Shown here one piece after another: positions 1 to 10,970 of a DNA stretch of 10,970 nt; the stretch's first letter is position 1, and the number at the start of each line of letters is the position of its first letter. The DNA comes from a virus (lineage: Duplodnaviria; Heunggongvirae; Uroviricota; Caudoviricetes). The stretch is from the IMG/VR virus record IMGVR_UViG_2579778535_000009, positions 1 to 10,970 of that record, one strand, 5' to 3'. The position numbers and the translations under genes were made by a program. The notes under the pieces were generated by a model, which saw only the letters and a program-made list of their open reading frames with translations, was not told where the DNA came from and did not search any database.

Positions 1-344
1 TTCAGCGTTTCCCGAAAATCAGCACTTCGCGCCCGGATAGTCAGGCGGTCCGGTGCGCCAGTGTGTTCAATCTCGTCCACTGTGAATGCCCCTTTCGGGA
101 AAAGCGGCTGCCCCTTCCAGCCCAGCGCCAGCGTAATAACCGCACCACGGCGCGGCAGCACGATTTTTCCGTCAGCGTCATCCAGCTCCAGATCAAGCTG
201 GTCCGCTTCAAAGCCCCGGTTATCCGTCAGCGTCAAACTCATCAGGCGGTTATCCAGCACAGTGGTGATATCCCTGCCCTCAATACTGATGCTGAATGCG
301 GGAGTTTTGTTGCCTTTGTTAAGCAGTTCAGAGCTGAAATTCAC
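1..344 (-). CDS. D: Phage tail protein D (gpD / late control D family), N-terminal part; ORF continues past the left edge of the window
   Basis: Absent from the ORF track because there is no stop inside the window. The minus-strand frame opens after a TAA at 368-366. The candidate GTG start at 344-342 overlaps the stop of gene A and is preceded by a GGAGG-type Shine-Dalgarno. Translation [76 protein letters not shown]... resembles the conserved N-terminus of P2 gpD / Mu P family as I recall it (recollection, not a search). Plus-strand ORFs 61-372 and 63-425 are its antisense shadows. Confidence 0.5.
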
Positions 345-2110
345 GACAGCAGCCCTCCCACCGTTTTACTGATATCGCTTACCGGCGCACCTGCTTTTTT
401 GTCACCCTGTTGCCTTGCCGCCTGACCAGCCAGCAAGCGAAGTTCACGATAAGCCTGACGCCCCGGAATACCAAAGAAGCGGAATTGCTGAACACGATGC
501 AGAGACGCCCAGGCATTCACGTATTCAGCGTTATCACGCAGAGATTTACCCGTTTCCTTGCTGATCTCGCCAGCCAGACCACGACCGTCAATGTTCTTAC
601 TGATATATTTCGCGATGTAGCTTGTCGGCGTTCCTTTGCGCGGGTTAATCAACTCAGACTTAAAGCGCGGCCCAGTGTTATTGCCCAGCTCCTCGCGGTC
701 TTCACGGATGGCAAACTTACGCAGTAATGCAGTAATGGCACGGCGGTCTTTTTTGCGCATGAAACACAACAGGTGCCAGTGAACTGTGCCGTCATGATGC
801 GGCTCAGCCACCCGCACGCCATACCAGCGCAACCCGGCTTTGTGCATCGCCTTACGAAATGCAGCAAACATGCCGACCAGATAATCGCTGCTTTGTCTTA
901 CCGTCGCGTTTGTCCAGGTCGGGTTTGGTCTGCCGTTATTTAGCGTGGAATGGAAACGCGACGGACAGGTGATAGTGTAGAAAACGGCGCAGTCACCGCG
1001 CATTTCCGCGATAAGCTCCAGACCTTTAACACAGGCCATCATCTCATTGCGGCGATGCGCAGGGTTGCTGCTGCTGGCGTTTACCACATCCTCCATGTCC
1101 AGCGTGTCGCCGTCTTCGTTCACCAGTTCATGAGAACGGAAAAACTCCAGCGACTTACGGCGCTGCTCACGTTTATGCATCACGGCTTCATAGCTGACAT
1201 AAGGAGATGCTTTTTTGCTGACCAGGCAAACAGCGCGCAACTGCTCTTCCCGCCATTCGCAACGCATCTTCCATAATTTCCGATACCACCAGTCGCCGCA
1301 CAACATACGCGCCAGCGAACCCGGAATGAGTTCATAGGGCACGGGTTTACGGCGGTTTCTTTTCCGACGGAGTTGCTCAAACGCAGGTGGGATGACATCC
1401 AGACGCAGGGTTTCCGCCGCCACCTTTTCCCATGTCTTGCGGATTTCTTCTGGCTTAACGTCATCGGTGGCATACAAATCGCCACAAGCTGCATCAAGGC
1501 ACATGCTCATATGCGCAGCTACCAGGGTGGACAGGCGTTTCACATGATCCTGACTCATTTCAGGCAGAATCAGCAGGCCGTCCAGCCCTTCATGGCTTGC
1601 CATAAAGCGAAAAGAAGTGGATAGCTGACTCTCGCGTACATGCTCCAGTCGTTCCAGACATGGCTTAATCGTCTCACGCAAATAGCGGGAATAAGCCTTT
1701 GGCCTGCCCAGGCTGCTGAAGTATTCAATACGTTGCATCAGCGGCTTGCTGATATGGGAAGGCTGGGCGTTGACGTCCGCCAGAATGACCATATCCGGAT
1801 TAAAACGCTGCTGCTCATGCGCCAGCTTTGCCCGACTAATGAGCTTATCCTGCTCCATTTCGCGCTGGACAGGATCACGGGATTCATTAAAGAAATAACG
1901 CTCCCAGACCTGATCACTCAGCGCCTCACGGCGCAGCTGTTCCTGCTCGTTATCGGCAGCGTACAGAGTGATCAGGTTTGAAAGCGCAGAAACCGGCGCA
2001 ACTTCCGCCGGGTCCAGATAAGGGTTAATGGCCTTTTTCGGGCTGTTCCATGAGAATGCTGCGGCGATCTCGTTAAAGCCGCTGCAGTTGTTCATATCAG
2101 CATGGCTCAT
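341..2110 (-). CDS. A: Phage replication initiation protein A (P2 gpA / 186 A family rolling-circle Rep endonuclease), possibly C-terminally shortened
   Basis: 589-aa ORF. Carries an HUH-type motif ([10 protein letters not shown]) and a paired-tyrosine motif ([13 protein letters not shown]) typical of P2 A-type nicking proteins. The start ATG overlaps the dam stop (ATGA). Only about 87 aa follow the YIAKY motif, far fewer than in P2 A as I remember it. Confidence 0.85.
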
Positions 2111-2964
2111 GCACGCACTCCGTACACGGCAGAACTATCCACGCCACACGAAGGATCAAATCCCACCCAGCAGCGCGGCCCGGAAACAGCGATGATTTCT
2201 GTTGCTGATTTACCCTCGCCAGCTGCCACACCGATGCTGCGTTTTACCTTGATATAGTGGTGAGTAAAATTGCGATACAGCGAACGAATCAGGGATGTGT
2301 CACTGTTAGAAACAATGACCGGATGTCCTTCAGATGATCGATGTTCAAGAACGGATGCCAGGTGATACTGGTCATCTTCAGTGAAACCATCAGTGTGATA
2401 GCCGGAAAACGTACCGTCATACGGCGGATCGCAATACACCACATCCCCCGCCTTCAACATCGCCAGCGTTTCATCAAAGCTGGTGCAGATAAACGTTGCC
2501 CGCTGGGCTTTTTCTGCAAATGCGCGAATTTCTTTTTCAGGGAAATACGGATTTTTATAATTACCGTAGGGAATGTTGAAATGCCCACTCTTGTTATAGC
2601 GACATAAACCACGGTAACCGTGACGATTGAGATACAGGAAATATACCGCTTTCATGAAATCAGTAATTTCAGTTGAGTAATTAAACTCCTGCCTTATGTT
2701 GTAATAAGCTACCTCCCTGTTTGCGATCTCAAATAAAACTCTGGCGCGAGATATAAACGATTCACAATCAGCGGCAACCTTTTTATAGAGGTTGATTAAA
2801 TCAGGATTAATATCCGCAACCAGATAGCTGGGGTAATCCGTCTCCATCATCACAGCACAGGAACCCGCGAAAGGTTCAACCAGTCGCGGGCCAGCAGGAA
2901 GATGTTTTTTCAGTTCGGACATTATGGCAGTTTTATTTCCCGCCCATTTCAGGATGGTGCTCAT
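2107..2964 (-). CDS. dam: DNA adenine methyltransferase (Dam family, N6-adenine MTase)
   Basis: The ORF track gives 2107-3024; the likely true start is the ATG at 2964 ([11 protein letters not shown]...), preceded by GGAGG. The N-terminus LKWAGNK...[11 protein letters not shown] and the DPPY motif ([10 protein letters not shown]) match E. coli Dam-type methyltransferases. The start overlaps the stop of the upstream zinc-finger ORF (ATGA). Confidence 0.85.
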
Positions 2965-3188
2965 ACAGCACCTCCGTTGTAATGTTTGCCTTTCAGCTCT
3001 GCAATTTCCTGACAGGTAATGCAAAGCTGCACACCCGGAATGGCACGGCGGCGTGCTGGCGGAATTGGCGCTTCACACTCAATGCAAAGCACGCGGGACA
3101 CGCCCGGCGTTTTGGCACGGGCAGCACGGATATGGCGTTGGCGTTCTTCTTCAACGCGCTGCTGTACGAGATCCATTGCATCAGCCAT
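2961..3188 (-). CDS. TraR/DksA-family C4 zinc-finger protein (phage early protein)
   Basis: 75 aa with CxxC-(17)-CxxC (CIECEAPIP...CITCQE) near the C-terminus, as in TraR/DksA-like phage proteins. Its start overlaps the upstream ORF stop (TAATG). Confidence 0.7.
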   Translation of the reverse strand: MADAMDLVQQRVEEERQRHIRAARAKTPGVSRVLCIECEAPIPPARRRAIPGVQLCITCQEIAELKGKHYNGGAV

Positions 3189-3427
3189 TAGTGAATCTCC
3201 TGCGCTTCGTTCTGGATTGCTTCAGCAGTCACACGAAGCAGTTCTGCCGCTTCGACGTGGGTTAGCTGGCGGGATGTGATATGACACGCCAGGCTATCAA
3301 GGCGAGCTGCCATTGCTTCAGCCCTTGCCCGGCGTTCTTCCAGACGAGCCTCTGTCAGTAAAATATTAAGCCCTGCGTCATCCGGTCCGGTTTTGGTCGT
3401 GAGGGTTTCAATATTACGCATAATCAA
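3188..3427 (-). CDS. Hypothetical small early-operon protein (79 aa)
   Basis: ORF in the co-directional early operon. AGGAG lies 8 nt upstream of the ATG at 3427. Translationally coupled to the downstream zinc-finger gene. No recognisable motif. Confidence 0.5.
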   Translation of the reverse strand: MIMRNIETLTTKTGPDDAGLNILLTEARLEERRARAEAMAARLDSLACHITSRQLTHVEAAELLRVTAEAIQNEAQEIH

Positions 3428-3487
3428 TTCTCCTGAATTTAGATAAAGGGATACTGGCGGGTTTACGCCATTAATTTCATTAGTTGG

Positions 3488-3829
3488 TTAATTCGGCATG
3501 GTTAGCCGTCTGGGAAATAAGCTCACCACTGCACGAAAATGATTCATTGCTTTAATCAACTCCCGCTTTTCGTCAGTGGTCAGCTCATTAATGCTGATGC
3601 TATGACGTTCAGCTGGAATTTTTGCCATAAAGAATATGGCAGCCAGTGCCCGTTTATTTTGTTCGCTATTAATATCCCGTGGATCACGCATATCTTTAAT
3701 AAACCGTTCAAGCTCTGACTCAATATTCAGACCAAAAACTTTCGCCCTTAACTCCGCAATATGATTAAGTCCATTCAGGCGTTCACCGGGTCTTAATGGA
3801 ACAGTCGCCGCAGCGCCTTCAATAGCCAT
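3488..3829 (-). CDS. Hypothetical early-operon protein (113 aa)
   Basis: ORF in the early operon with a G-rich SD upstream of the ATG at 3829. Overlaps the 3' end of the upstream 66-aa ORF by 37 nt. Function unknown. Confidence 0.5.
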   Translation of the reverse strand: MAIEGAAATVPLRPGERLNGLNHIAELRAKVFGLNIESELERFIKDMRDPRDINSEQNKRALAAIFFMAKIPAERHSISINELTTDEKRELIKAMNHFRAVVSLFPRRLTMPN

Positions 3830-3993
3830 TGGTTCCCCCGTTTTTTCGTTGATAGTTCTGCCAGCAATTCATCTTGCGAACGGCACGGATGCCAGCGTTT
3901 ACCATCCTCACCCATGATCCAGCCGTGACCGTAGTGCATTGCCGGACTTTGTTTTACCAGCAGCGATGCAAATGATGGTTCTTTCGTCAGCAT
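3793..3993 (-). CDS. Hypothetical small early protein (66 aa); positional analogue of 186 fil/dhr-type host-takeover genes
   Basis: The ORF track gives 3793-4023; the ATG at 3993 (MLTKEPSF...) is preceded by GAGGTG and avoids overlap with cII. Function inferred from position only. Confidence 0.45.
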   Translation of the reverse strand: MLTKEPSFASLLVKQSPAMHYGHGWIMGEDGKRWHPCRSQDELLAELSTKKRGNQWLLKALRRLFH

Positions 3994-4000
3994 AAGCACC

Positions 4001-4510
4001 TCACAGCAAACCGAATGAAGCACCGAGGCCAGTTACAGTATCAACTGCACTTGCCATCGCAGGATTAACCTGTAAACGGGCCTGCAATGAAACAGCAGCT
4101 AACGCCATCAGTCGTGTAACAGAGTTAATGCTGCTGATAGCATCACGACGACCTGCACTGGTTTTTACATCGCCAGATACCGCACCTGCAGCAACACGCC
4201 CGATCTCTGCGGTTGCACTCATGACGTAATGTGGCAGTTTCTCTTTTGCCACCTCATTAATCGGTACACATGGCAGGCAGTGAATCTGTGCCAGAAAACC
4301 GTCTACCAGCGTTGAATCTTCCGTCAGATCGGTAAGTAGCCAGATATCTGGCGCATTGAGCTGATGCGGTTGATCTGGGTTGAGTTTGTTTCGCAGAGTC
4401 TGGACATTCATTCCTGCACGTTCTGCCAGCTTCGCCATATTGTGACGAAGTGCAAAAGCTCTACAGGCTTCATCAAAATGCGGGTGTTTGGAAATCTTAT
4501 AATCAAACAT
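4001..4510 (-). CDS. cII: Phage regulatory protein CII (186 CII / CP76 family lysogeny-establishment activator)
   Basis: 169 aa, the same length as 186 CII. The sequence MFDYKISKHPHFDEACRAFALRHNMAKLAERAGMNVQTLRNKLNP... closely matches my recollection of 186 CII, including the HTH region. It is the second gene of the lytic operon. Confidence 0.8.
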   Translation of the reverse strand: MFDYKISKHPHFDEACRAFALRHNMAKLAERAGMNVQTLRNKLNPDQPHQLNAPDIWLLTDLTEDSTLVDGFLAQIHCLPCVPINEVAKEKLPHYVMSATAEIGRVAAGAVSGDVKTSAGRRDAISSINSVTRLMALAAVSLQARLQVNPAMASAVDTVTGLGASFGLL

Positions 4511-4542
4511 GCTACCCCCTTAGAAAGTTCTCATAATTGAAC

Positions 4543-4785
4543 TTACTTACCAACAATGACGCGGAAGTTGGAATGACCGAGGGATTCACGGACCTGATCG
4601 GTTTTGTACATTAAATAACGCAGGCTTACGCGGCCTTTGTTTTTTTCTTTCTTGACCATGTATTTAGCAAGCTGACCATGGTGAATTTTTTGATACACGG
4701 AGCCGCGGGAGATACCTTCCCATTCCGCGAACTCTGCAGGCGTAGCCATCTCTTTTGGTACACGAATTGAAATATCAGTGCTCAT
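4543..4785 (-). CDS. apl: Apl/Cox-type small HTH protein (excisionase / lytic-operon repressor), first gene of the early operon
   Basis: 80-aa ORF transcribed divergently from cI. HTH-like segment PAEFAEWEGISRGSVYQKIHHGQL. SD GGGAGA upstream of the ATG at 4785. The assignment is mainly positional, by analogy to the 186 apl and P2 cox layout. Confidence 0.55.
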   Translation of the reverse strand: MSTDISIRVPKEMATPAEFAEWEGISRGSVYQKIHHGQLAKYMVKKEKNKGRVSLRYLMYKTDQVRESLGHSNFRVIVGK

Positions 4786-4820
4786 AGTGCAGTATCTCCC
4801 GATTAAGGTTTGGTTTACGT

Positions 4821-4890
4821 CGTTTTATCTCGTTTTACTTGATTCAATATTTGATACATCGAGATACTACGATCCAATATTTGATACGTC
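4821..4890. repeat. Operator-like direct repeats in the cI/apl switch region: 20-bp repeats at 4841-4860 and 4871-4890 (GATYCAATATTTGATACRTC, 18/20 identical) and a tandem 10-bp repeat CGTTTTAYCT at 4821-4840
   Basis: Seen directly. The 20-bp copies are 30 bp apart. One overlaps the -35 and spacer of the pR candidate; the other lies just downstream of its -10. Confidence 0.45.
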
Positions 4891-4892
4891 AA
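4864..4892 (-). promoter_or_regulatory. Candidate sigma70 early lytic promoter (pR-like): -35 TTGACG (4892-4887), 17-bp spacer, -10 TAGTAT (4869-4864)
   Basis: Read on the minus strand as CCTGTTGACGTATCAAATATTGGATCGTAGTATCTC. Correct orientation and distance (about 70 nt) upstream of the apl start. Confidence 0.4.
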
Positions 4893-4904
4893 CAGGATTA
4901 AAAA

Positions 4905-5537
4905 ATGATACAGGTAAAGGTTGGAGAGAATACAGGGGGAAGAGAGGCTATCCATAGACTAATGGCAGCCTATGATTTCAAGTCCAGACAGCAACTTTGC
5001 GATCACTTAGGCGCATCAAAAAGCACCATGGCAAACAGATACTTAAGAGATAGTTTTCCTGCAGAGTGGGTGATTCAGTGCGCCTTGGAAACAGGAGTTT
5101 CTTTACTGTGGCTAACCACCGGACAGGGGGAGCCAGGTCCAAACATTGAACCTAAAAAAAATATCAATTCCGTGAACTCCAGCAAGGTTGTACCTCTTTC
5201 TGAACTAGTATCTCCTGAAATTGACAAGGCGACTCTCAACGGTGGTTTATTGGTCGATGCTGGAAAAGCAATCATTGATAGCAGCATACTCCCCTCAGAC
5301 TCAAGCAACCTACTGCTGGTGACTACTTCTGGTGATTCTTATTTAATAGATCGCAACCAAACACCACCAGTAAATGGTATGTGGTTAGTCGATATCGACG
5401 GGATAAAAAGCATCGTTAAATTGACTCGACTCCCGGGAAACAAATTAGTAGTGCATCAGGATGATTCATCGTTTGAGTGCGGTCTGGATGACATTGAGGT
5501 AGTAGGCCGCGCACTGAAAATCATTAAGAGCCTTTGA
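4905..5537 (+). CDS. cI: Immunity repressor CI (186-type)
   Basis: Divergent from apl and immediately upstream of int (cI stop TGA 5535-5537, int ATG 5539). HTH-like segment SRQQLCDHLGASKSTMANRYL. Start uncertain: the ATG at 4905 has AGGA 7 nt upstream; the ATG at 4962 would give 191 aa, close to the size of 186 CI. Confidence 0.7.
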   Translation: MIQVKVGENTGGREAIHRLMAAYDFKSRQQLCDHLGASKSTMANRYLRDSFPAEWVIQCALETGVSLLWLTTGQGEPGPNIEPKKNINSVNSSKVVPLSELVSPEIDKATLNGGLLVDAGKAIIDSSILPSDSSNLLLVTTSGDSYLIDRNQTPPVNGMWLVDIDGIKSIVKLTRLPGNKLVVHQDDSSFECGLDDIEVVGRALKIIKSL

Positions 5538-5538
5538 T

Positions 5539-6570
5539 ATGACCATCAGAAAACAGCCGAACGGAAAATGGTTGTGTGAGTGCTATCCCAATGGACGCAA
5601 TGGCAAGCGCGTGCGTAAGCAATTTGCCACGAAAGGCGAAGCCATTGCGTTTGAAAGCTTCACAATGGAAGAAGTGAATAAAAAACCGTGGTTGGGTGAA
5701 AAGGATGATCGGCGACGCCTATCAGAATTAATTGAGCTTTGGTATTCCCTGTATGGTCAGACACTCGCAGACCCCAAGCGCCTCATGGCGAAACTTAGAA
5801 TTATCTGTAATGGTCTAGGCGACCCCATCGCCTCTGAGCTGACAGCCGGAGACTTTACGAAATACCGCGAAGCACGGTTAAAAGGTGAAATACGAAATGA
5901 AGATGGCACGCTTATGTCGCCCGTTAAGCCCCGCACGGTAAACCTTGAACAGCGCAATCTATCATCGGTGTTCGGTACATTAAAAAAACTAGGACACTGG
6001 TCAGCACCAAACCCGCTGGCAGGACTTCCGACCTTCAAAATTGCCGAAGGTGAGCTGGCTTTTCTTTCCACGGACGAAATCAAGCGCCTGTTGGCGGCAT
6101 GTGCTGAATCTCAAAGCCCTAGCTTACTAATGATTGCAAAAATATGCCTAGCTACTGGCGCACGGTGGAGTGAAGCAGAAAATCTGCAGGGCCATCAGTT
6201 ATCCAAATACCGCATCACTTATACCAAGACGAAGGGCAAGAAAAACCGTACCGTGCCAATATCTCAGGATCTTTACAACGAACTCCCTAAAAACAGAGGA
6301 AGGCTATTCACCCCATGCAGAAAAGCCTTTGAACGGGCAGTAAAACGAGCTGGTATTGAACTGCCAGAGGGACAATGCACCCACGTTCTACGCCATACAT
6401 TCGCCAGCCATTTCATGATGAACGGCGGAAACATACTGGTACTGCGCGATATTTTGGGCCATGCCGATATAAAAATGACGATGATTTACGCCCATTTTTC
6501 TCCAGACCATCTGGAAGATGCAGTAACGAAAAACCCTTTGAACTTTATATACTTGTCGAATAACATGTAA
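5539..6570 (+). CDS. int: Tyrosine integrase (P2/186 Int family)
   Basis: 343 aa. The N-terminus (NGKWLCECYPNGRNGKRVRKQFATKGEAIAFE) resembles P2-type Int. Catalytic motifs ARWSE, HVLRHTFASH and MIYAHF (Tyr) are present. It reads toward the ssrA fragment. Confidence 0.85.
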   Translation: MTIRKQPNGKWLCECYPNGRNGKRVRKQFATKGEAIAFESFTMEEVNKKPWLGEKDDRRRLSELIELWYSLYGQTLADPKRLMAKLRIICNGLGDPIASELTAGDFTKYREARLKGEIRNEDGTLMSPVKPRTVNLEQRNLSSVFGTLKKLGHWSAPNPLAGLPTFKIAEGELAFLSTDEIKRLLAACAESQSPSLLMIAKICLATGARWSEAENLQGHQLSKYRITYTKTKGKKNRTVPISQDLYNELPKNRGRLFTPCRKAFERAVKRAGIELPEGQCTHVLRHTFASHFMMNGGNILVLRDILGHADIKMTMIYAHFSPDHLEDAVTKNPLNFIYLSNNM

Positions 6571-6610
6571 CTTATAATGTAAGTACACAAAAGTGATCTT
6601 AATCTTAAAT

Positions 6611-7606
6611 ATGAAACCTAATTTAATTTCACGTAAACAGTACCAACACCTCAAAAATGAGTTAAATAGACTTGAGAGCTTACCATATAGACGAGGAAAC
6701 AACCCAACCAACCTCAGAATATTAAAACTAAGAGAAGATCTAACAAACTCTCTTGTTGAATCCAGAAAAAGAAATTCAAAAAAAATTAATGGAGGAAATG
6801 TTAGCTGTATAATATGCAAGAAAAATTTCAAAAGTGCTCATGGCCTATATGAGCACTATCGCGCCAAGCATAGCAATATGATTGAACACCCTACCTCATT
6901 GTTTAATAAAGAAATAAATGGCAATACAACACTGCTTGAAAGCATTTCGCATCCTGTCACAAAAGGTATACCAATAGCAGAACACGATAAAAAAATATCA
7001 TCCATTACGCTAAACAGGGAAACTAAATATTTCAATGTAGATGCGTATAATCTGGCATGCCTTTCATTAACAAAAAGTGAAGCAATAAAAATCGCTAAAG
7101 ATGAATTATTATCAAGGCAGTTTCTTGGACAAAAAAACACTCTAGAACCTACTCTACCGCCAGTCATATTTATAAATCCCTCTGATACAATTAGTATACC
7201 AGTTGTCACAAAAGGCAATACTCATCTGCAAACAGTATTACAGCGTGACTCTGGCGAACAGGTTGACTTTAAAAAAAGGGTTCTAAAAAACTTCTCAAAT
7301 GTATGCGCAATAACAGGTTACAACCTCCCAGTATTGCAGGCATGTCACCTTGAACCATTTTCTCAGACCCAAAACCATAGAACCAACAATGGAATACCTC
7401 TTGAACCTACCCTTCATGCCTTGCTTGACCGAGGTCTACTAGCCATACATCCAGATAATTTAACTATTCATTTTGCTATCGATTGCTATTACAAAAATAT
7501 ATATGAAGGAAAAAATATCAAACCTCATAAGATTGATTTAGATAAAAATTCACTGCTAATAATTTGGAAGAACTTTCTTTTGAATGTTAAAAACAGCCAA
7601 CCGTAA
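6611..7606 (+). CDS. AT-rich cargo gene: protein with an N-terminal C2H2-type zinc finger and a C-terminal HNH-type (HNH_2-like) nuclease domain; candidate defence or accessory nuclease
   Basis: The ORF track gives a GTG start at 6593; the first ATG is at 6611. Zinc finger: CIICKKNFKSAHGLYEHYRAKH (C-x2-C-x12-H-x4-H). C-terminus: CAITGYNLPVLQACHLEPF...NNGIPLEPTLHALLDRGLLAIHPD, which matches the CAITG...HI.P...NGL.L...H.LFDRG pattern of HNH_2 nucleases as I recall it. Base composition is visibly much more AT-rich than the flanking phage genes. No obvious SD. Confidence 0.6.
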   Translation: MKPNLISRKQYQHLKNELNRLESLPYRRGNNPTNLRILKLREDLTNSLVESRKRNSKKINGGNVSCIICKKNFKSAHGLYEHYRAKHSNMIEHPTSLFNKEINGNTTLLESISHPVTKGIPIAEHDKKISSITLNRETKYFNVDAYNLACLSLTKSEAIKIAKDELLSRQFLGQKNTLEPTLPPVIFINPSDTISIPVVTKGNTHLQTVLQRDSGEQVDFKKRVLKNFSNVCAITGYNLPVLQACHLEPFSQTQNHRTNNGIPLEPTLHALLDRGLLAIHPDNLTIHFAIDCYYKNIYEGKNIKPHKIDLDKNSLLIIWKNFLLNVKNSQP

Positions 7607-7732
7607 GTTAGCCTAAAATTGGCGACAACTTGGCGGCAGAGCATTAAAAATGCGTAAAACGGATAAACACAGGATAATAGTAACACACTGTTTTTAAACG
7701 CAAACTACTGTTTTCATTGTATTAAAAATAGT

Positions 7733-7777
7733 ATGTAGGAATTTCGGACGCGGGTTCAACTCCCGCCAGCTCCACCA
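7733..7777 (+). ncRNA. ssrA: 3'-terminal 45 nt of tmRNA gene ssrA (T-arm and acceptor 3' strand ending CCA); attachment-site copy, not a full gene
   Basis: ATGTAGGAATTTCGGACGCGGGTTCAACTCCCGCCAGCTCCACCA matches the 3' end of E. coli ssrA as I recall it. Upstream sequence is AT-rich coding DNA with no tmRNA 5' domain (no GGGGCTGATTCTGG about 360 nt upstream). Confidence 0.8.
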
Positions 7778-7810
7778 ATTTTTGATATATTGAAGTTCAG
7801 TGAAGTCTAT

Positions 7811-7845
7811 CAAGCCCGCATGGAACCAGCCTTGCGGGCTTTTTT
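7811..7845 (+). terminator. Rho-independent terminator-like hairpin (AAGCCCGCA ... TGCGGGCTT followed by TTTTTT)
   Basis: Perfect 9-bp inverted repeat with a T-run, about 35 nt downstream of the ssrA CCA end and upstream of the intA start. Confidence 0.45.
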
Positions 7846-7902
7846 ACGTCTATAGTAGTCTACCGAGAATTGCTAGAATCTACTCGTTATGGCACCCTTT
7901 TT

Positions 7903-7946
7903 GGGACCCAACACAAAGGGTCCAAAACATGAGGGTCCCAAACATG
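7903..7946. repeat. Three copies of a GGG(A/T)CC(C)AAA motif at exact 15-bp spacing (7903, 7918, 7933), the first inverted relative to the others, overlapping the intA RBS and start
   Basis: Seen directly: TTGGGACCCAA cacaaa GGGTCCAAAACATG a GGGTCCCAAACATGG. Candidate protein-binding array. Confidence 0.4.
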
Positions 7947-9173
7947 GCAAAAATCGCTAAGAAGCTCACTGACACTGAAATCAAAAGCACCAAACCTGCC
8001 GAGAAAGAGGTTAACCTTTTTGACGGCGATGGTTTGCTCCTGCGAATCGCCCCCTTAGCGAAGGGAGGAAAGAAAAATTGGTATTTCAGATATGCAGTGC
8101 CTGTGACCAAAAAGCGAACTAAGGTGAGCTTAGGAACCTATCCTCACCTTACACTTGCGAAGGCACGAGCTTTACGTGATGAGTACTTGTCGTTGCTTGC
8201 AAATGGTATAGACCCACAAGTTCATAACACCCACAAAGCCAATGCCCTTAAGGATGCAACGGAACATACATTTCAAGCAGTAGCCAAGAAGTGGCTTGAT
8301 GAGAAAGTCAAAACGTCAGGCATCTCCCAGGATCATGCTAACGACATCTGGCGAAGCCTAGAGAGAAATATCTTTCCAACGTTGGGTGATACCCCCATTA
8401 AGGAGATTCGCCCTAAAATGCTTAAACAGCATTTAGACCCCATAGAAAAACGAGGTGTCCTTGAAACACTTCGCCGCGTCATATCCCGCCTGAATGAAAT
8501 TTTCCGCTATGCAGCAACAGAAGAACTCATAGAATTCAATCCGGCTGACAACCTGGGGCAACGGTTCAGCAAGCCAAAAAAACAGAATATGCCAGCATTA
8601 CCCCCTTCCGAACTCCCCCGCTTCCTGGTTGCTCTAAACAATGCTTCTATCCGTTTAGAAACAAGGCTACTGATTGAGTGGCAACTTCTCACATGGGTTC
8701 GCCCTGGTGAAGCTGTTCGCACAAGATGGTCAGATATTGATATAGAAACCAGCATGTGGAACATCCCGGCGGAGTTTATGAAAATGAAGAAGCCTCACAA
8801 AGTTCCACTGAGCAAAGAATCTTTGCGAGTCTTGGATTCAATGAAAGCCATCAGCGGGCATAGAGAGTGGGTTTTTCCCAGTATCAAAGCTCCACTCAAT
8901 CACATGCATGAACAAACAGCTAATGCGGCTATAATCCGTATGGGCTTCGGAGGTGAGCTTGTAGCTCATGGTATGCGATCAATCGCTAGAACGGCGGCTG
9001 AGGAGTGTGGCAAGTTTAGAACTGATGTCTTAGAAGCCGCCCTTGCCCACTCGAAAAAAGATGAAATAATTGCAGCCTACAATCGTGCAGAGTATCTCAC
9101 AGAACGTGTGGTTCTCATGCAATGGTGGAGTGACTATGTTTCGTCTCAAAAATACAAAGTTATTGCCGCATAA
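7944..9173 (+). CDS. intA: Tyrosine integrase, P4/CP4-57 IntA family (N-terminal DUF4102-like arm-binding domain)
   Basis: The ORF track gives 7800-9173, but that start would run through the terminator hairpin. The ATG at 7944 (MAKIAKKLTDTEIKSTKP...) has GAGGG 8 nt upstream. Conserved blocks DDIWRSLERNIFP, WQLLTWVRPGEA, HGMRSIARTAA, DVLEAALAH and YNRAEYL match my recollection of CP4-57 IntA. It lies immediately downstream of the ssrA 3' end, as in CP4-57. Confidence 0.85.
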   Translation: MAKIAKKLTDTEIKSTKPAEKEVNLFDGDGLLLRIAPLAKGGKKNWYFRYAVPVTKKRTKVSLGTYPHLTLAKARALRDEYLSLLANGIDPQVHNTHKANALKDATEHTFQAVAKKWLDEKVKTSGISQDHANDIWRSLERNIFPTLGDTPIKEIRPKMLKQHLDPIEKRGVLETLRRVISRLNEIFRYAATEELIEFNPADNLGQRFSKPKKQNMPALPPSELPRFLVALNNASIRLETRLLIEWQLLTWVRPGEAVRTRWSDIDIETSMWNIPAEFMKMKKPHKVPLSKESLRVLDSMKAISGHREWVFPSIKAPLNHMHEQTANAAIIRMGFGGELVAHGMRSIARTAAEECGKFRTDVLEAALAHSKKDEIIAAYNRAEYLTERVVLMQWWSDYVSSQKYKVIAA

Positions 9174-9455
9174 CTCTTCCATGATGGGTTAACTATCTTG
9201 ATTTATTTGAAGAATTAATGATCACACCATTAACCTATGTGGACTAAGCATAGCCATTTACAAATGGGTACCTTGAGGCCACATAACGAAAGCTGTCGGT
9301 CATATCAGCTAAATAATTCACATCTCTTCTCGATTATCATACACCTCGAAGAACTACCAAATTCGCTCTAATCAATGATAAAACAGTTGAATTCGGTTAA
9401 AATTTGATCAATTTTATCCTCTACATTGTATTGAATCATCCATGAGGTTTTGTGC

Positions 9456-10970
9456 ATGGCTAGCGGAAATGAAAAAAATCATAGAGTTAGGGTCGCACAG
9501 TACTTGAGGATGTCTACCGACCATCAGCAATATTCTTTACATAATCAGTCTGAATATATCAAAGATTATGCTGAAAAGAACAATATGGAAATCGCTTATA
9601 CCTACGATGATGCAGGTAAGAGCGGAGTCAGTATCGTAGGCAGGCATTCTTTGCAGCAGTTACTTAGCGATGTAGAACAAAAGAAAATAGATATACAGGC
9701 TGTATTATTTTATGATGTGAGCCGTTTTGGTCGTTTTCAAAATAGTGATGAAGCTGCATATTATTCCTTTCTATTTGAAAGAAATGGTGTAGATCTTATA
9801 TATTGTTCCGAACCTATACCCACTAAAGATTTCCCTTTAGAGTCCTCTGTTATACTGAATATAAAAAGATCAAGTGCTGCATATCACAGCAGGAATCTAT
9901 CTGAAAAGGTATTTATAGGGCAAGTAAATTTAATAAAGCTTGGTTATCATCAAGGCGGTATGGCTGGTTATGGGCTGAGACGTCTTTTAGTAGACGAAAA
10001 TGGCATAGCTAAAGAAATATTGAATTTCCGCAAAAGAAAGAGTATTCAAACAGATAGGGTAATATTAATTCCGGGACCAAAAAATGAAATAAAAATTGTA
10101 AATAGAATCTATGATCTCTTTATAGATAGTAACGTCCCAGAATTCATTATTGCTGAGAGATTAAATGAACAGAGCATACCTGCAGAAAATGGAACATCAT
10201 GGACTCGTGCAAAAATACATCAAATTTTGACAAATGAAAAATATATTGGAAACAACATATATAACAAAACCTCATCTAAACTAAAAAGTAGGCTTGTAAA
10301 AAACCCCAAACATGAATGGATTAGATGTGACAAGGCATATAAACCAATTATTTCAAAGAAAAAATATAATAAAGCTCAAGAAATAATTCAGCTCCGATCC
10401 ATTCATTTGACTAATGAAGATCTATTAGAAAAGCTAAAAGAAAAATTAGAATCTAATGGAAAACTATCAGGCTTTATCATTGATGAAGATGATACAGGCC
10501 CTTCATCTTCTGTTTATAGAACCCGATTTGGTGGTCTTTTAAGAGCATATACTTTGATTGGTTATAAGCCAGAACATGATTACAGCTATCTCCAAATAAA
10601 TGAAGCACTAAGATCATTTTACTCAGAGATAATTGAGGATTTTAAGGGCGAAATATTAAAAAGTAACTGTCATATAGACGAGTATAAATATTACCCAATG
10701 CTTTACATCAATGATGAGTTTTTAATTTCCGTCCTTGTTACTAAATGCATACATATGAAATCAGGTAAACTTAGATGGAAAGTCCGGTTTGATAACTCAC
10801 AGAAAGCAGACATAACAATTGTTATACGAATGAATTCACAAAATATTTCACCTCTTGATTTTTATATCATACCAAAGATTGAAAACGAATATAGTAAAAT
10901 GTGTATGTGGATTTGCCCCTATATTTCCAGACATCTGTTATCACTTAACCCATTACAAGCCCGCTGCCGC
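9456..10970 (+). CDS. Large serine recombinase (resolvase-type catalytic domain plus recombinase domain), AT-rich; 3' end beyond the window
   Basis: Not in the ORF track. I translated 505 codons from the ATG at 9456 to the window end with no stop; GAGG lies 8 nt upstream. The N-terminus VAQYLRMSTDHQ...YDDAGKSGVS...LQQLL...SRFGR carries serine-recombinase catalytic motifs. The segment ILIPGPKNEIKIVNRIYDLF...AERLNEQSIP...GTSWTRAKIHQILTNEKYIGNNIYNK fits the recombinase domain of large serine recombinases. Confidence 0.75.
   Translation, partial: MASGNEKNHRVRVAQYLRMSTDHQQYSLHNQSEYIKDYAEKNNMEIAYTYDDAGKSGVSIVGRHSLQQLLSDVEQKKIDIQAVLFYDVSRFGRFQNSDEAAYYSFLFERNGVDLIYCSEPIPTKDFPLESSVILNIKRSSAAYHSRNLSEKVFIGQVNLIKLGYHQGGMAGYGLRRLLVDENGIAKEILNFRKRKSIQTDRVILIPGPKNEIKIVNRIYDLFIDSNVPEFIIAERLNEQSIPAENGTSWTRAKIHQILTNEKYIGNNIYNKTSSKLKSRLVKNPKHEWIRCDKAYKPIISKKKYNKAQEIIQLRSIHLTNEDLLEKLKEKLESNGKLSGFIIDEDDTGPSSSVYRTRFGGLLRAYTLIGYKPEHDYSYLQINEALRSFYSEIIEDFKGEILKSNCHIDEYKYYPMLYINDEFLISVLVTKCIHMKSGKLRWKVRFDNSQKADITIVIRMNSQNISPLDFYIIPKIENEYSKMCMWICPYISRHLLSLNPLQARCR

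Follow-up and report, generated by a model that had tools for sequence, protein, structure and literature searches.

A displaced ssrA 3′ end at the junction of a Fels-2-like prophage remnant and a P4-type-integrase island in Escherichia coli

A short piece of the tmRNA gene ssrA, consisting of the last 45 nt of the gene and lying between two integrase modules, is very probably (roughly 0.9) the original chromosomal 3′ end of ssrA, displaced by a Fels-2/186-type phage that integrated in front of an island with a P4-type integrase. This fragment can be read as the core of the int-proximal junction of a Fels-2-like prophage, and its last ~15 nt as the left junction of the P4-type island. The stretch of DNA analysed, referred to here as the window, is 10,970 bp long and represents the whole of draft contig AYQQ01000096.1 (GCA_000503395.1), so that the intact ssrA of the source strain has to be deduced from relatives; it is only in relatives that the intact gene and the far end of the island are visible. 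An initial annotation had proposed that the locus records tandem site-specific integrations at ssrA, and this proposal is upheld by the gene order in the closed E. coli genome WS4437A-1, by a phage-free site in E. coli STB20-1 and by the attP of free phages.

The fragment around which the argument turns is the following.

7733-7777, plus strand: displaced 3′ end of ssrA, identical to the ssrA of three E. coli genomes and to the attP core of phages Cartapus, SEN8, MLG42 and Fels-2

The fragment (ATGTAGGAATTTCGGACGCGGGTTCAACTCCCGCCAGCTCCACCA) matches the last 45 nt of ssrA from WS4437A-1, STB20-1 and K-12 at 45 of 45 positions and corresponds to nucleotides 319-363 of a tmRNA of 363 nt in total, that is to the T-arm, the 3′ acceptor strand and the CCA end. 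The A at 7778 is also present in the phage-side copy, so that the repeat is 46 nt long. For a 32-nt portion of the fragment the chance expectation is 0.00 occurrences in 49 kb. When aligned to ssrA, the sequence upstream of 7733 displays no homology to the gene apart from a two-base chance match at 7730-7731; identity to the 3′-end of the gene over 45 of 45 positions, with homology ending abruptly on the 5′ side at 7733, is the pattern of an Islander-type fragment of a tRNA or tmRNA gene. No tmRNA gene is detected in the window by ARAGORN, and with the Rfam tmRNA model the window reaches 35.1 bits, below the gathering score of 47, with the 3′ end alone aligned and 267 internal model positions skipped. 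These two results bear out the earlier statement that only the last 45 nt of tmRNA are present, and the fragment lacks what defines a functional tmRNA gene, namely a complete tRNA-like domain, a tag reading frame and pseudoknots.

The left flank had been described as a P2/186-type int with a cargo gene. Pfam matches agree with this description and identify the flank as the early, regulatory end of a P2-family, 186-type prophage remnant, made up of the following features.

1-2110, minus strand: internal deletion scar, in which the end of gpU and the start of gpD (3-344) are fused near base 380 to gene A
341-2110, minus strand: replication gene A, truncated (589 aa versus 804 in the full protein)
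4001-4510, minus strand: CII (Pfam)
4543-4785, minus strand: Apl-type excisionase and switch regulator of 80 aa, 100% identical to Fels-2 Apl
4905-5537, plus strand: 186-type CI repressor (Pfam Phage_CI_repr, Phage_CI_C)
5539-6570, plus strand: P2/186-family tyrosine integrase (Pfam Int_N, Phage_integrase), 92% identical to Fels-2 Int
6611-7606, plus strand: HNH-nuclease cargo gene (Pfam HNH_2; PADLOC HNH models)

The module of CI, Apl and CII, accompanied by a P2-family integrase close to that of Fels-2, places the prophage among the Fels-2/186-type phages (Peduoviridae). The counterparts of Apl in the SEN8 and MLG42 records are annotated as apl or excisionase, and a Dam methylase gene is also found in the prophage part of the window (Pfam). 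Window positions 1 to 381 correspond to the gpU/gpD region of this type of prophage, and the match from 380 onward is to the middle of gpA. One metagenome contig and two assemblies of public sequencing runs also encode this gpA fusion protein; ssrA is reached by none of these three other contigs. As the fusion of gpD to gpA removes the structural genes, the prophage is a remnant for which virions are impossible, rather than a complete, inducible phage genome; its int, apl and cI genes and its ssrA junction look intact. The slot between int and the attachment site, occupied here by the HNH gene, is variable, in that a dCTP deaminase, GapS1 or a RES-domain protein is encoded there in relatives. 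The dCTP deaminase found in the cargo slot of close relatives is of the anti-phage type. For the cargo gene of the window, PADLOC returned nothing beyond generic HNH matches. A hairpin with a minus-strand terminator score lies directly after the HNH stop codon (7595-7613) and may be a bidirectional terminator or the terminator of the cargo gene.

On the right of the fragment a terminator-like hairpin and an intA-type integrase had been noted, and both are recovered here along with further components of an island.

7812-7845, plus strand: intrinsic terminator with a 12-nt stem (7812-7823/7830-7841) of 92% complementarity, a 6-nt loop and a T6 run at 7840-7845
7900-7946, plus strand: tandem 15-nt repeat AGGGTCC(A/C)AAACATG at 7917-7931 and 7932-7946, with an inverted copy at 7900-7909
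7944-9173, plus strand: P4-type (IntA-like) tyrosine integrase of 409 aa (Pfam Arm-DNA-bind_3, Phage_int_M, Phage_integrase)
9456-10970, plus strand: large serine recombinase of the island (Pfam Resolvase, Recombinase), running off the contig end

The island integrase reaches 445 bits with the NCBIfam model NF007246 (cutoff 434) and is 49% identical over 401 aa to IntA of the K-12 element CP4-57; a P4-family integrase gene immediately 3′ of the end of ssrA is the arrangement of a P4-type island. An alpA-like gene is absent from the window. The 15-nt tandem repeat overlaps the start codon of the integrase gene, and comparable GGCCCA/GGACCAA repeats are present at both ends of CP4-57 in K-12; the repeats in the window are candidate arm-type or autoregulatory sites of the P4-type integrase. 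The terminator hairpin is identical (100%) to the one behind the intact ssrA of STB20-1 and homologous to the one behind ssrA of K-12, and it matches the terminator end of the Rfam family IsrM. It is the usual ssrA terminator of phage-free genomes that contain this island, stranded in the window behind a fragment of the gene.

The layout of the complete locus can be followed in WS4437A-1, which matches window positions 380-10911 at 99.0%. The initial annotation had suggested a search of the full genome for the intact ssrA and for further 3′ fragments, and both are found in this relative. The intact gene (L001 21827-22189) is located 19.3 kb upstream of the 45-mer (L001 41475-41519) in the same orientation, and the order is smpB, ssrA, a hypothetical gene, ogr, gpD and so on to gpA, cI, int, HNH, the 45-mer, the terminator and the P4-type integrase. 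The cognate gene is here intact, it shares replicon and orientation with the fragment, and an integrase gene stands between the two. If the source strain is collinear with WS4437A-1, the 3′ end of its ssrA would fall ~1.7 kb to the left of base 1 of the window. The island of WS4437A-1 extends over ~20 kb and contains the serine recombinase (annotated there as 'recombinase family protein') and, according to the annotation of the part beyond it, two ParB genes, NACHT and RelA/SpoT-domain genes and IS elements. Its far end was located by blasting the right-end flank of CP4-57 from K-12, and consists of a 13-nt relic of ssrA, CGCCAGCCCACCA, that lacks T357 (L002 20837-20849). This is the distal, T357-less repeat of the ssrA end expected of a P4-type island, at the position that it occupies in K-12, and the flank that follows it is 100% identical to the K-12 CP4-57 right-end flank. 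The T357-less relic, the flank shared with K-12 and a published table together indicate that the island is located in the CP4-57 slot and makes use of no more of ssrA than its terminal ~15 nt. Each of the two elements in WS4437A-1 can accordingly be paired with an integrase and an ssrA-derived repeat, the prophage with its Int and the 45-mer and the island with its P4-type integrase and CGCCAGCCCACCA, the latter being short and truncated by an IS66 element. A third long ssrA repeat is absent downstream in WS4437A-1 (searched with a 26-mer allowing up to 3 mismatches and with T357-less variants allowing up to 4). Neither finding that would have spoken against tandem integration was encountered, given that no full ssrA adjoins the 45-mer and that other ssrA-derived repeats lie nearby in WS4437A-1.

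The element that cuts the far end of the island is of the IS66 family (ISCro1, L002 18124-20836); it abuts the CGCCAGCCCACCA relic exactly, and the adjacent arm has been removed. The insertion of ISCro1 has probably immobilised the island in WS4437A-1.

The site without the phage and the phage without the site are both available for comparison. STB20-1 contains no prophage, and its intact ssrA is directly joined to sequence 100% identical to window positions 7778-8080; this locus is the unoccupied site for the phage. In the free phages Cartapus, SEN8 and MLG42 the int-side arm, the 45-mer and the ogr-side arm are contiguous and constitute attP, and the ogr-side arm carries its own terminator, AAGGGGTTACGTGAAAGCGTAGCCCCTTTTT. 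In the record of Fels-2, attP is annotated as a split feature of 47 bp with the same A of ATGTAGG as its first base. It follows from the attP of the free phages and the STB20-1 site that the window holds the int-proximal prophage junction, composed of phage arm, core and original downstream DNA. The boundary at which homology to ssrA ends, 7733, coincides with the boundary of the attP core in the free phages.

The 46-mer was matched in all 5426 of the 5426 complete E. coli genomes, at 5968 places, which amounts to 542 extra copies, with up to 4 copies per genome. The arrangement of the window as a whole (at least 80% of it covered) is encountered in 19 of the 5426. Other traces of integration were also noted. 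Near the pinH and ypjC pseudogenes, both in K-12 (L008 12898-12960) and in WS4437A-1 (L002 26334-26400), a relic with the sequence TGCCAGCCCACCA continues directly into an ogr-side arm of the Fels-2 type, terminator included. This relic goes back to a P2-like element that was inserted in the ssrA array at an earlier time, even in K-12, and it implies that the locus has been used repeatedly. The chromosome of E. coli ET734 (L009 10232-12245) displays int, HNH remnants, the core, a hypothetical gene, ogr and gpD in succession, an attP-like junction that suggests a head-to-tail double lysogen or a rearrangement.

The phage side of the junction contains several groups of short repeats.

7607-7732, plus strand: int-proximal arm of the attachment site, AT-rich (34% GC), 126 nt, kept among Fels-2-type phages
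7620-7638, plus strand: paired direct repeats TGGCGACA (7620-7627) and TGGCGGCA (7631-7638), TGGCGRCA motifs 11 bp apart
7644-7669, minus strand: three GTTTTA-like hexamers spaced 8 and 10 bp, candidate Apl excisionase sites
7687-7694 and 7707-7714, plus strand: ACTGTTTT direct repeats 20 bp apart, between the candidate arm-type sites and the core

The arm aligns with those of Fels-2, SEN8, Cartapus and MLG42, with a mean column identity of 84% in an alignment of arm plus core, and in five phages the blocks TGGCG-CA and TTGGCGGCA are invariant, as are the blocks TAAAAC and TAAAA. The sequence TGCCGCCA, the reverse complement of the TGGCGRCA repeat, fits tgccGCCActt, the consensus of the arm sites bound by 186-type Int (PMC3448106). 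The TGGCGRCA pair recurs with the same 11-bp spacing in the ogr-side arm (WS4437A-1 L001 22238/22249), where an inverted copy is also present at 22278, so that each side of the core has two or more direct repeats of the 186 type. The pair at 7620-7638 probably represents the arm-type sites to which the P2/186-family integrase would bind. The GTTTTA-like hexamers resemble others, on the opposite strand, at 4813-4837 in the cI-apl switch; in both places they are about one helical turn apart. In phage 186 the binding sites of Apl, at attP as well as at the switch, are 6-bp direct repeats with a spacing of 10-11 bp (PMC7498355), and the hexamers in the window are putative Apl operators. An inverted repeat around the core (7713-7729/7778-7794) was dismissed, as its right arm is island DNA outside attP.

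The short ACTGTTTT direct repeats just upstream of the fragment, which the initial annotation had pointed out, do exist, and their interpretation as arm-type binding sites of the phage integrase has in its favour that the two copies are exact, that they lie 20 bp apart in the int-proximal arm and that their TGTTTT cores are conserved in five phages. Nevertheless, among 5000 dinucleotide shuffles of the 126-nt arm, 522 (10.4%) contained some exact 8-mer direct repeat within 40 bp, the ogr-side arm lacks the motif, although arm sites of the P2/186 kind flank the core on both sides, and the motif does not match tgccGCCActt, whereas the TGGCGRCA pairs fit this consensus in both arms. Such a role is distinctly unlikely. 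In 186 the Apl and IHF sites are located between the arm sites and the core (PMC7498355), and the position of the ACTGTTTT repeats, which is the one that these sites have in 186, makes a function in bending more plausible; they probably belong to a region for bending or accessory factors rather than to the arm-type sites.

The events that would have produced the present map can be outlined as follows. A temperate phage of the Fels-2/186 type would have recombined, by means of its tyrosine integrase, its attP with the 3′ end of ssrA. The attP would have contributed its own copy of the 45-47 nt and its own terminator; since it carries both, a complete ssrA would have been rebuilt at the far, ogr-side end of the prophage. 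The old 3′ end of the gene would have been left beside int and the cargo gene, still attached to its former downstream DNA. This DNA would have been an older P4-type-integrase island in the CP4-57 slot, which would itself have been inserted earlier at the final ~15 nt of ssrA, bringing with it the terminator of the gene. Because the phage would have joined DNA that consisted of the fragment plus the island, the fragment would form both the junction of the prophage on its int side and the left junction of the island. Either element may still be mobile, and excision of the phage would leave CGCCAGCTCCACCA. The description of the fragment as acting as a shared attachment site stands in one respect, in that the last ~15 nt used by the island lie inside the 45-mer. 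It is not supported as a statement about present-day activity, as the prophage is internally deleted and the far end of the island in WS4437A-1 is cut by IS66; with the right end of the island reduced in that relative to 13 nt against the IS66 element, the role of the fragment for the island may be purely historical.

A different sequence of events, in which the phage arrived first and the P4-type island was inserted later into the displaced fragment, would produce the same final map, and its end product would be indistinguishable within the window. The fragment holds the complete terminal ~15 nt used by P4-type integrases and could have served as a secondary target. The same island family, however, abuts an intact ssrA without a phage in STB20-1 at 100% identity, the island is decayed, with IS elements and a truncated right end, its right flank is common to CP4-57 in K-12, and the full arrangement is confined to the 19 complete genomes mentioned. 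These observations favour an older island and a younger phage, which we infer to be the more parsimonious order, and the reverse order is unlikely. An origin that involves no site-specific recombination, through decay of a second ssrA copy, homologous recombination or mis-assembly of the draft, could be suspected because the window is a draft contig and contains, near base 380, a deletion junction. It is so improbable as to be nearly negligible, as the 7733 boundary is exactly that of the attP core in free phages and a closed genome and an independent metagenome contig both show the fragment junction at 99.7%.

The fragment and its terminator might also be regarded as a functional small RNA or tRNA-like decoy, for example one resembling IsrM. 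Positions 7768-7845 match Rfam IsrM with 42 bits, a stretch of 118 nt folds better than its shuffles (z = -2.99), and read-through transcription from the int-HNH operon is conceivable. Yet the IsrM score falls far under the gathering score of 376, with 261 of the 329 model positions missing; no promoter-like site is found upstream on the plus strand, the 5′ acceptor strand is absent, so that the tRNA-like domain cannot form, and the folding signal stems from the T-arm and the terminator. A functional RNA of this kind is very improbable, and the fragment is better viewed as the displaced end of ssrA set out above. The Rfam matches to IsrM and to permuted tmRNA were rejected as partial matches to the end of ssrA plus the terminator. 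In the model of IsrM, a small RNA of Salmonella islands, it is the ends that match, to the last 10 nt of ssrA and to the terminator, and the middle 261 nt are absent; this suggests that the IsrM locus may itself descend from a junction between an ssrA end and an island.

Tandem arrays of islands at tRNA and tmRNA genes were reportedly treated by Williams in 2003 under the title 'Traffic at the tmRNA gene'. They constitute a recognised class, compiled in the Islander database (PMC4383910), and the present locus agrees with them without essential difference: every element comes with a separate integrase and a separate ssrA fragment, the fragments are oriented as the gene, and the element beside the intact gene seems to have arrived later, as inferred here. 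Fels-2 and SopEPhi, with P2 integrases, leave an intact 3′ end at ssrA, and at CP4-57, with a P4 integrase, T357 is deleted (PMC10107115). In Salmonella, the junction of the Fels-2/SopEPhi prophages at ssrA goes back to Pelludat et al. 2003, according to the passages of PMC3448106 and PMC10107115 that cite it. The prophage of the window is like Fels-2 in its Int (92%) and Apl (100%), in the start base of its core and in the conserved int-proximal arm, and likewise in a cI-int order that reads towards the attachment site and in the regeneration of an intact ssrA. It differs from Fels-2 and SopEPhi in its host, E. coli, in the HNH cargo gene between int and the attachment site and in the internal gpD-gpA deletion. 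The repeat measures 46 nt here versus 47 in Fels-2 because the base that follows CCAA differs in the island DNA.

Likeness to CP4-57 of K-12 concerns the integrase gene right behind the 3′ end of ssrA, the homologous terminator and, in WS4437A-1, a right end formed by the same CGCCAGC-CCACCA relic without T357, next to a flank 100% identical to that of K-12. Unlike CP4-57, the island encodes an integrase that is only 49% identical and contains a serine recombinase, a ParB pair, NACHT and other genes instead of alpA, yfj and rnlAB, and it adjoins a displaced fragment rather than a working gene. The attP of coliphage 186 comprises Int arm sites, IHF sites and five Apl operators. The attachment site studied here resembles it in the paired repeats that fit tgccGCCActt on both sides of the core, in the Apl-type factor encoded beside cI and in an AT-rich spacer with short repeats in roughly helical phase; it differs in that 186 targets a tRNA gene and not ssrA, and in that the IHF consensus WATCAANNNNTTR, with at most one mismatch, has no match in 7600-7780.

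The locus is an ordinary and already known signature of repeated integration at the ssrA hotspot, and no new mechanism is called for. Its analysis delimits two mobile elements, in that the prophage ends on its int side at 7777/7778 and the left end of the island falls in the final ~15 nt of the 45-mer, and it corrects the assignment of integrase arm sites, which is useful for annotation and for tracing the order in which elements were acquired. It also adds a further example of ssrA as a multiply used integration hotspot with variable defence-type cargo. When CP4-57 excises in K-12, T357 is deleted and tmRNA is inactivated, an event referred to as a 'regulatory switch'. It is conceivable, albeit doubtful, that the tandem layout uncouples tmRNA activity from excision of the island, in that a decoy fragment would be scarred and the working ssrA shielded by the prophage remnant. 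If so, tmRNA would be lost only by a joint deletion extending from the intact gene through the right end of the island, and insulation of this kind could help to explain the retention of Fels-2-like remnants at the ssrA locus.
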